From Escherichia coli (GTDB lineage: Bacteria > Pseudomonadota > Gammaproteobacteria > Enterobacterales > Enterobacteriaceae): a DNA stretch of 64,000 nt. The notes under the pieces are model-generated. The model made no database searches. It was not told the origin of the DNA and worked only from the letters and a program-made list of their open reading frames with translations. Positions 7,907-8,500 of the stretch are shown piece after piece. Position 1 is the stretch's first letter, and each line of letters begins with the position of its first letter. The stretch is taken from assembly GCF_003018115.1 (NCBI RefSeq), contig NZ_CP027457.1. One strand, written 5' to 3'. The translations under genes were made by a program, and so were the position numbers.

Positions 7907-8500
7907 TTACACCAGAGCACATATCTCCGACAGGGTGCTGTCCAGTCGCGGTCGACCCCGGTTACTTTTTTCGGGAAGCCTGCTACGCATCAGAATAATA
8001 CCGTGTTCTTTCTGATCCTGTTTAGCCAGGTAGCTGAGGGCGTAACGTAAGTCGTCTACCGCAGATTTATCACTATAGTGAATCACGTGATCGATACGCA
8101 CCGGGTATTTGTCTTTAGCCCGGCAAAGGTGAAAGTAACCCTCCCCTTCCGTGATCCGCCTCCAGATATCTCCCAGTTGCCTGGATATCTGATAAGAGTT
8201 CTTGTGACGTTGCCCATCCAGGTAGCCGATAAAATGAATATGAAGCCCTTTGTTTGGTGTATATTCCATAACCCAGTAATATCCTGCCAGCATCGTTTGG
8301 GTTTCGCTAAGTAAGCGGTATATTTCCATACACATACTGTGCTTACAGCCATGACCAAAACTGGGCGTGTCTTTCCTGTAGGCAAAATCAATTCTGAAAG
8401 GTAACAGTTTAGAAAAACGTTGAAACAGACCTTCCATGTGTTCATTCACATCTTTCAGAATCGCGAAATTCATTTCGTAATTGGGATTGGCATTATACAT
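7907..8500 (-). CDS. HUH-motif Rep-like protein (inovirus gpII-like, YagK/YfjJ family)
   Basis: 197-aa ORF with HUH-like LHIHFIGY and downstream Y..K (RYALSYLAK); such genes occur in CP4-type prophage islands. Confidence 0.55.
   Translation of the reverse strand: MYNANPNYEMNFAILKDVNEHMEGLFQRFSKLLPFRIDFAYRKDTPSFGHGCKHSMCMEIYRLLSETQTMLAGYYWVMEYTPNKGLHIHFIGYLDGQRHKNSYQISRQLGDIWRRITEGEGYFHLCRAKDKYPVRIDHVIHYSDKSAVDDLRYALSYLAKQDQKEHGIILMRSRLPEKSNRGRPRLDSTLSEICALV

Follow-up and report, generated by a model that had tools for sequence, protein, structure and literature searches.

We analysed a stretch of 64,000 nucleotides (nt) of one strand of an Escherichia coli genome (RefSeq assembly GCF_003018115.1, contig NZ_CP027457.1), referred to here as the window, focusing on the gene at 7907..8500 on the minus strand and on the AT-rich tract that lies 5' of it. 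The open reading frame (ORF) has exactly these coordinates and an ATG start, is intact, and encodes a protein of 197 amino acids (aa) for which RefSeq already has a name (Gp2 hereafter). Over 5.1 kb around the gene, the sequence matches the E. coli 2014C-4135 chromosome (NZ_CP027310.1) at 100% identity. An earlier note on this DNA had singled out the motif LHIHFIGY and a downstream Y..K in this ORF, and both are present, as residues 86-93 and as Y157-L-A-K160. Our preferred interpretation, held with moderate confidence, is that Gp2 is a Rep-class HUH endonuclease of an integrative island and that the tract is mainly its promoter and leader, plus the terminator of a neighbouring gene. The gene and its motifs are as follows.

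7907..8500, minus strand: predicted Gp2-like Rep-class HUH endonuclease gene, 197 aa (RefSeq WP_050866912.1, 'inovirus-type Gp2 protein')
8264..8266, minus strand: codon of E79, candidate third metal ligand, on a W-V-x-E-Y strand; the ligand role is by analogy with the Reps of adeno-associated virus (AAV) and of circular Rep-encoding single-stranded (CRESS) DNA viruses
8222..8245, minus strand: HUH motif LHIHFIGY (H87, H89), codons L86-Y93, on the predicted strand 85-95
8021..8044, minus strand: putative catalytic-Tyr helix YALSYLAK, codons Y153-K160; Y157 and K160 are invariant, Y153 is not
7946..7960, minus strand: RGRPR, AT-hook-like core, codons R181-R185, in the low-confidence C-terminal tail

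The predicted Rep-class HUH domain and the C-terminal tail of Gp2

The Rep-class assignment is carried by the conservation of the putative active site. In 27 database homologues, which go down to 34% identity and form the basis of our family profile (A1), H21, R36, D38, W113, T117, Y157, A159, K160 and R181-G-R-P-R185 are invariant, and E79, H87, H89 and Y153 are at least 90% conserved. In a second set, which was assembled independently and comprises 33 full-length proteins of different species, E79, H87, H89, Y157 and K160 are retained by all 33 members; the residue between H87 and H89 is A, V, I or F in 31 of them, S once and Y once. The Y153 position is variable in this set (Y in 23, R in 8, F in 2) and thus not universal, which assigns Gp2 to the one-Tyr type. 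The homologue alignment and the AlphaFold model together place E79 as an invariant residue on the strand neighbouring the HUH strand. The complete motif set follows the order seen in Reps, i.e., the R36-x-D38 strand, E79, H87-U-H89, and then Y157-L-x-K160 on a helix. An HUH motif followed by the Tyr belongs to Reps, not to classical relaxases, and the E...HUH...YxxK spacing of Gp2 is like that of the AAV and CRESS Reps. The pattern H-U-H-UUU followed after 40-90 aa by YxxK occurs once among the 138 stop-free stretches of at least 100 aa in the window (30,452 aa) and in 41 of 20,000 shuffles of the Gp2 protein (0.2%); since the residues are invariant in homologues, its presence here is not a matter of chance. 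The strict invariance of E79, H87, H89, Y157 and K160 argues for selection on catalysis.

Profile searches point in the same direction. Searched against 1.84 billion representatives, the A1 profile matched 2,467 clusters, 1,367 of them at E <= 1e-10. Beyond the closest ~35 clusters, most matches are proteins of ~340-400 aa that carry the domain in their C-terminal half; relatives of ~360 aa were found at E 1e-24 to 1e-31, and seven of eight sampled long relatives pass the PF11726 threshold (26-40 bits). Among the 27 homologues, PF23343 is matched by 26, PF11726 by 24 and Rep_1 by two, with best E values among relatives of 3.4e-9 for PF23343 and 1e-8 for PF11726. Comparison of the family profile with K-12 YagK by hhalign gave a full-length alignment (E 3.2e-4 over 157 columns) that pairs the R-x-D strand, W-x-x-E-Y, H-U-H and Y-L-x-K. 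One distant relative of 799 aa (P0221) has a YagK/YfjJ-type HUH domain fused to a TrwB/HerA-type P-loop ATPase domain, so that some members of the family may act in DNA translocation or as coupling proteins. On the other hand, sequence searches of the PDB returned only spurious matches (designed Kelch-repeat proteins, through HIH..G..DG, a fungal lectin and K88 fimbriae), and the sole NCBIfam match of Gp2, to RecX, is meaningless.

The AlphaFold (AF2) model of Gp2, with a predicted local distance difference test score (pLDDT) of 88 and a predicted template modelling score (pTM) of 0.82, has a beta-alpha-beta-beta-alpha-beta core in which strand 85-95 bears the HUH motif and helix 145-159 the Tyr. 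A Foldseek search against viral models (BFVD) gave 'Inovirus Gp2' as the top match (E 2.7e-8, TM 0.63). CRESS Reps, parvovirus NS1 and microvirus initiators ranked next, and most of the 88 matches with E <= 1e-3 are Reps. Foldseek matches to solved structures (PDB) were marginal only. Judged by its best matches, the nuclease domains of SIRV1 ORF119, parvovirus NS1/AAV Rep and CRESS-DNA virus Reps, the predicted structure is most like viral Rep nucleases. Unlike these viral proteins, Gp2 has no fused SF3 helicase, is encoded by a chromosomal island gene, and no stem-loop origin was found with it.

Overall, we consider the Rep-class HUH fold and active site of Gp2 to be well supported by the invariant residues, the profile links and the AlphaFold model, in agreement with the rolling-circle-type reading of the earlier note. 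Profile search did find HUH-family similarity, to PF23343, PF11726 and YagK, and a distant relationship to YagK and YfjJ is likewise supported at the level of sequence. These K-12 proteins of the CP4-6 (YagK) and CP4-57 (YfjJ) elements, members of PF11726 (formerly Inovirus_Gp2 or DUF3296), share the core and the motif order of Gp2, and their islands contain an integrase, AlpA and DUF3987/YfjI as the Gp2 island does. Nevertheless, identity is only ~20% (for YfjJ from BLASTP only), K-12 YagK has neither the GRPR tail described below nor Y153, and the gaps upstream of yagK and yfjJ are only 152 and 271 bp and lack the 24-nt element of the Gp2 locus. The earlier description, 'inovirus gpII-like YagK/YfjJ', stands for this distant kinship but not for its inovirus part: pII of the Ff phage M13 shows no similarity to the Gp2 family profile (hhalign E 0.55, probability 0.1%). 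What Gp2 and pII have in common is a name in annotation and an extended non-coding stretch just 5' of the initiator gene, whereas the Ff-type palindrome around the nick site is absent from the Gp2 tract.

Past the last ordered residue, Gp2 continues as a Pro-rich linker followed by a near-invariant G-R-P-R. The RGRPR sequence is conserved in 27/27 A1 homologues, and the G, R, P and R residues are found in 33, 33, 31 and 33 of the 33 proteins of the second set. Many distant relatives end in this way too, with G[RK]P[RK] among the last 25 aa of 72/96 long and 21/29 short proteins. Towards the end of the model the pLDDT falls, to 54 and then 45 for the final two blocks of ten residues. The tail is AT-hook-like by pattern match only, the Pfam AT_hook model giving no match to it, and it may bind AT-rich DNA. 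Our literature search, which was incomplete, found no description of the GRPR tail, of the 24-nt element or of the leader hairpin treated below.

The AT-rich tract, the 24-nt element and the leader

The tract spans 8501-9814, i.e., 1,314 bp with 33.4% GC vs 49.4% for the window, in keeping with the ~1.3 kb non-coding AT-rich tract that had been described beside the gene. RefSeq has no annotation within it, either in the source genome or in 30 sampled rows of the 1,582 sharing E. coli genomes. Its longest stop-free stretch is 54 aa (78 +/- 17 in shuffles), and it is strongly T-rich on the Gp2 sense strand (T 536, A 339). No Rfam family was found in the tract with either E <= 1 or the gathering thresholds as cut-off; a mir-87 'hit' is the hairpin at 9737-9775. 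The tract is a composite of a cargo-gene terminator, a spacer, a 24-nt element and a ~760-nt leader.

9737..9775, minus strand: perfect 18-bp hairpin 3' of a 620-aa gene, likely its terminator; compensatory changes in strain YD786 (locus L004)
9290..9736, no strand assigned: distal spacer, GC 32%, poorly conserved; travels with the 620-aa gene, not with Gp2
9266..9289, minus strand: conserved 24-nt element ATAATTAAGGTTAATTAGTATTAT, with a palindrome at 9274-9287 and a -10-like TATTAT at 9266-9271
9136..9167, minus strand: terminator-like hairpin of 13 pairs followed by TTTAGTTATG, ~100 nt downstream of the element
8501..9259, minus strand: AT-rich, T-rich leader (~760 nt) from the element to the start codon, with a weak Shine-Dalgarno (SD) sequence AAGGA at 8508-8512 in a degenerate anti-SD hairpin

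The two ends of the tract have different histories. The Gp2-proximal 390-815 bp is common to 1,582 of 5,426 E. coli genomes (80-95% identity), and the full tract occurs in only 69, all of which also carry the 620-aa gene. Only the proximal ~800 bp thus travels with Gp2, and the ~500 bp at the distal end goes with the adjacent cargo gene. Between loci, the proximal 400 nt is 84-95% identical vs 89-94% for Gp2 third codon positions; because this matches third-codon-position divergence, the conservation reflects recent common ancestry and not extra constraint, and we reject the proximal 400 nt as constrained DNA, since it evolves about as fast as synonymous sites. Leaders also differ between strains by indels, including a ~175-nt deletion in O157. 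The equivalent of the tract (~8500-9800) is interrupted by the insertion sequences IS2 and IS1 in NZ_CP019778.1 (NCTC86) and NZ_CM129862.1, so that it tolerates insertions. Loci with ~1-kb leaders were found to have no intervening ORF that would mark the leader as the remains of a gene. An ORF of 42 aa at 9131-9259 on the minus strand (MWWYLWYNLPLFIVMSLLFML...), very hydrophobic and overlapping the 9136-9167 hairpin, starts right past the 24-nt element and might conceivably encode a toxin-like peptide. It and the first leader hairpin are not core parts, since the segment is deleted in O157:H7.

The 24-nt element consists of a palindrome, AATTAA-GG-TTAATT, followed by (A/G)(G/A)TATTAT. It is unique in the window, with no match in 100 shuffles, and its region is present in 1,717 of 5,426 complete E. 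coli genomes. A position-weight scan (score >17) of 45 Enterobacterales Gp2 loci, i.e., 43 from a genome scan and the E. coli loci, found one strong copy in 25 of them, always on the Gp2 strand, and the element is kept at loci whose Gp2 is only 32-58% identical. In IMG/VR, only four contigs contained it. In most genera, 113-191 nt separate the element from the ATG; the E. coli type and two others have a longer distance of 590-1,033 nt. A monophyletic Klebsiella/Citrobacter clade has a related element, TTTGGGTTTTTAGTATAATTAAGGGG, that keeps GG-N5-TAGTAT(A/T)AT and contains a perfect TATAAT, and the Yersinia/Serratia/Brenneria-type clade has TGn before the hexamer (TGnTATTAT), i.e., an extended -10. 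Given these TATTAT, TATAAT and TGn variants across clades, the most widely shared part of the element is the -10 box. By its sequence, the element is most readily understood as a promoter combined with an operator.

Features of the RNA downstream of the element fit this assignment. An A-rich box (AAAAATTACA-like) precedes the ATG in nearly all loci, as does an 8-12-bp hairpin whose 3' arm is the SD sequence. The arms of this anti-SD hairpin co-vary between clades (ATCCTTTG/CAAAGGAT, TTCCTCTG/CAGAGGAA, GTTCCTTTG/CAAAGGAAC and TCTTCCTGTG/CACGAGGAAGA); that of the window is degenerate (-4 to -6 kcal/mol). RNAalifold returned no structure from MAFFT leader alignments, in which the variable loops misaligned the 3' arms, and the anti-SD hairpin thus rests on per-sequence folds and on the comparison of arms. 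Since it is a feature at the RNA level, the DNA from the element to the ATG would be transcribed as a leader, for which the element is the simplest candidate promoter. The leader RNA of the window is more stably folded than its shuffles (z = -2.97). The long E. coli leaders contain terminator-like hairpins, and the one at 9136-9167 shows two compensatory changes vs strain M70 and is absent from O157; the short leaders of other genera have no canonical terminators. The anti-SD hairpin and the 24-nt element are under clear constraint.

The earlier note had proposed that the tract might hold the origin or nick site of the gene product. In its full form, this explanation makes the tract a double-strand origin and the 24-nt element a binding and nick site for Gp2 that overlaps the promoter of its own gene, which we regard as rather unlikely. 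The element is far better conserved than Gp2, single-copy, always on the strand of the gene, and the only deeply conserved DNA nearby; its variants track the Gp2 clade and not the adjacent AlpA-like protein; it contains TAGTATTAT, identical in 8 of 9 positions to the nanovirus/circovirus nonanucleotide TAGTATTAC; and its two AATT runs would suit the GRPR tail. Yet co-inheritance alone could explain the clade tracking, the most widely shared part of the element is exactly the -10 hexamer, and the RNA-level conservation downstream marks a transcribed leader. Moreover, no conserved stem-loop presents the site. A search for conserved nick-site hairpins, which the earlier note had suggested, revealed none that is both conserved and stable: DNA folds of the element at 12 loci gave a 5-bp all-A/T hairpin only, mostly no better than in shuffles (|z| < 1.6 in 9 of the 12). 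Iterons and tandem, direct or phased repeats are absent from 8400-9900. With only the proximal ~800 bp travelling with the gene, no iterons and a promoter-like element, the proposal of an origin in the tract finds no positive support. On the other side, origins of rolling-circle plasmids and CRESS-DNA viruses often overlap the rep promoter, so that an origin at the element retains some probability. As a separate observation, the divergent intergenic region of Klebsiella/Citrobacter/Enterobacter-type loci (L013-L020, L044) contains 3-4 ACTGAT repeats at 11-nt spacing; in L015 they lie ~300-340 nt upstream of Gp2, and the tract of the window has no such repeats.

A refinement of our preferred interpretation is that the element is a loading site for an AlpA-type antiterminator, with the tract controlling the expression of Gp2 and not replication; we regard this variant as rather unlikely. 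The AlpA of P. aeruginosa occupies a site between the -35 and -10 boxes and enables RNA polymerase to read through downstream terminators (PMC7969949). The P. aeruginosa promoters resemble the Gp2 locus in having a linked AlpA-family gene, a conserved element that abuts the putative -10 and a terminator-like hairpin downstream. Here, the palindrome immediately precedes the -10-like hexamer, the E. coli leaders have terminator-like hairpins further on, and an AlpA-family gene is linked in 33 of 35 loci, mostly as a 68-aa gene 3' of Gp2 at a median of 102 nt past its end. We found no description of this tight linkage to a small AlpA-family gene in the papers covered by our search. However, the published AlpA site, GGGACGN5GGTA (PMC7969949), is unrelated in sequence, the palindrome is not repeated close to the integrase or anywhere else in the island or window, the short leaders of other genera lack canonical terminators, and E. 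coli-type loci keep the element without a 68-aa gene beside Gp2. The 68-aa AlpA-like proteins are also near-identical at loci with different elements, and we have down-weighted this protein as the binder of the element for want of co-variation between the two. These small proteins (L007-L047), which adjoin Gp2, are near-identical across genera (segment DKWFYKLIKDG.FPKPIKLGRSSRW) and far more conserved than Gp2.

The island around Gp2 and its distribution

Gp2 is a core gene of Enterobacterales integrase/AlpA-type integrative islands of the CP4-57/CP4-6 kind, many of which are defence islands. In the window, the island adjoins ycdU and has the order integrase, DUF3987, AlpA, 620-aa hypothetical protein, unannotated gap, Gp2 and two zinc-ribbon genes. 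Its annotated components are the following.

13709..14926, minus strand: tyrosine integrase of the island, adjoining ycdU (from annotation)
12010..13539, plus strand: DUF3987/YfjI-type protein, a phage-type DNA helicase (phrog_2373 'DNA helicase', E 1e-39)
11751..12038, plus strand: AlpA-family helix-turn-helix gene of the island (PF05930, E 1.7e-17)
7153..7536, minus strand: DUF7828 plus zinc-ribbon gene 3' of Gp2, a recurrent neighbour (9 of 35 loci)

The DUF7828 plus zinc-ribbon gene and a frameshifted paralogue occupy 6729-7536 (minus strand) directly downstream of Gp2. The 620-aa ORF at 9815-11677 on the minus strand (RefSeq CDS 9815-11650; 37% GC) has no match in Pfam, NCBIfam, PADLOC or PHROGs; homologues occur at the same place in strain YD786 (72% identity) and elsewhere in the O157 island (28%), and it looks like a cargo gene, possibly defence-related. 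PADLOC gave no defence-system assignment for Gp2 or its neighbours in the window. No tRNA gene is present in the whole window, though the integrase abuts ycdU (gap 14927-15292); in strain YD786, RefSeq places an 'RtT sRNA' in the equivalent gap. Sister loci in O157 and uropathogenic E. coli (UPEC) strains have the order YfjI/DUF3987 helicase, proximal leader block, Gp2 and PrimPol-helicase. The gene after Gp2 in these loci encodes a 786-aa PrimPol plus helicase that RefSeq calls 'TOTE conflict system archaeo-eukaryotic primase' (L002 3922-6282, L003 3916-6282). Taken together, the PrimPol-helicase, YfjI and Gp2 resemble a replication module more than they do a defence system.

The gene class has been described before. 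HUH endonucleases or Rep-like rolling-circle initiators were reported in tRNA-integrated defence-island elements of E. coli (bioRxiv 10.1101/2025.09.15.676423), and Pseudomonas islands that a jumbo phage transduces have an 'inovirus Gp2-like' gene in their core set (bioRxiv 10.1101/2024.08.29.610337, 2024). These islands match the present one in gene class, in the combination of integrase, AlpA and defence cargo, and in the proposed role, a likeness at the level of the class; neither preprint has an origin, a promoter element, an AT-hook tail or biochemistry. The gene in the window is an ordinary member of this known class. Since RefSeq names the exact protein and the preprints already call such genes HUH rolling-circle initiators, the identification in the earlier note is not new and repeats existing annotation and interpretation. 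In K-12, yagK and yfjJ are listed among the uncharacterised prophage genes (PMC11551758). A DUF3296 gene of enteroaggregative E. coli (EAEC) 042 is regulated through Aar/H-NS (PMC5570504), a case that by analogy fits H-NS silencing of AT-rich leaders.

The island setting bears on whether Gp2 could be a Rep-like relaxase that nicks an origin of transfer (oriT) of the excised island, the single-stranded DNA of which would then be mobilised by a co-resident conjugative element, i.e., an integrative mobilisable element. Rep-like relaxases of the MOBT type exist, the islands have neither capsid nor conjugation genes, P0221 has its coupling-protein-type ATPase domain, and distant relatives occur on ~110-kb Acinetobacter plasmids that PLSDB classes as mobilisable. 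However, the HUH-before-Tyr order is that of Reps, the neighbours in E. coli are a helicase and a PrimPol and not coupling proteins, and similar Pseudomonas islands move by phage transduction. We hold a relaxase role to be decidedly improbable.

It is more doubtful still that Gp2 is a decaying or non-catalytic remnant, such as a DNA-binding regulator with a Rep fold, and the tract H-NS-silenced acquired DNA without a specific function. Frequent truncated copies, the absence of origin anatomy, and a leader that diverges at about the synonymous rate and has large indels and insertion sequences in other strains would suit such a remnant. The ORF is nevertheless intact here, the five putative active-site residues are strictly invariant at 32-58% identity and in ~360-aa relatives of other orders, and the 24-nt element and the anti-SD hairpin are clearly constrained.

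A proposed role for Gp2 in the island

Based on the predicted active site and the island context, we propose a scheme in which Gp2 acts on the excised island. Excision driven by the integrase and AlpA would come first. The GRPR tail would then bind Gp2 to AT-rich duplex DNA, and Gp2 would cut one strand at a specific site, with a metal held by E79, H87 and H89 and a 5'-link through Y157. The free 3'-OH could prime rolling-circle copying of the circular island, helped by its DUF3987 helicase and, in sister islands, also by the PrimPol-helicase. Until induction, the tract would keep gp2 silent, possibly through H-NS-type silencing that is relieved, antitermination or relief of the anti-SD hairpin. 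The 24-nt element is the only nick-site candidate.

Several results weigh against the interpretation of Gp2 as a Rep-class island endonuclease with the tract as its promoter and leader. The Gp2 protein itself scores under the gathering thresholds of PF23343 REP_ORF2-G2P (20.1 vs 27.8 bits) and PF11726 YagK_YfjJ_C (17.1 vs 25.8 bits). A simple sigma-70 consensus promoter scan does not call the 24-nt element, which it misses because there is no -35, and no origin-like anatomy was found in the tract. Phage records contain two weak matches to the family among 50,697, neither of them an inovirus, and IMG/VR two loci among 2.9 million contigs; among plasmids, close matches come from E. coli records of large size (212 kb to 1.2 Mb), and the others are the distant relatives on Acinetobacter plasmids. 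Being near-absent from small plasmids and phages, the family offers no known case of an autonomous replicon with one of its members as the only initiator. Truncation to 110-140 aa affects many of the E. coli copies, a pattern that suggests weak selection. In its distribution, Gp2 is a chromosomal island gene and not a phage or small-plasmid initiator.

The additions of this study to a known gene are modest and concern the GRPR tail, the 24-nt element, the leader hairpin, the AlpA linkage and regulatory details. They nevertheless concern islands that are very common, as the number of complete E. coli genomes with the element region shows, and whose cargo includes virulence and anti-phage functions. 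The 24-nt element offers a concrete candidate substrate if Gp2 is an active nickase, and a small AT-hook-bearing HUH enzyme could then be added to the toolbox for protein-DNA tagging. A positive nicking result would turn a set of y-ome genes, the yagK and yfjJ relatives, into a defined replication or mobilisation module. Finally, Gp2 and the element may form a minimal, hairpin-less rolling-circle or transfer origin that overlaps a promoter and is opened by an AT-hook-tethered nickase. We regard this as rather unlikely; if true, the 'cryptic' integrase/AlpA islands that about one in three E. coli genomes contains, together with many Enterobacterales defence islands, would self-amplify and make single-stranded DNA after excision.

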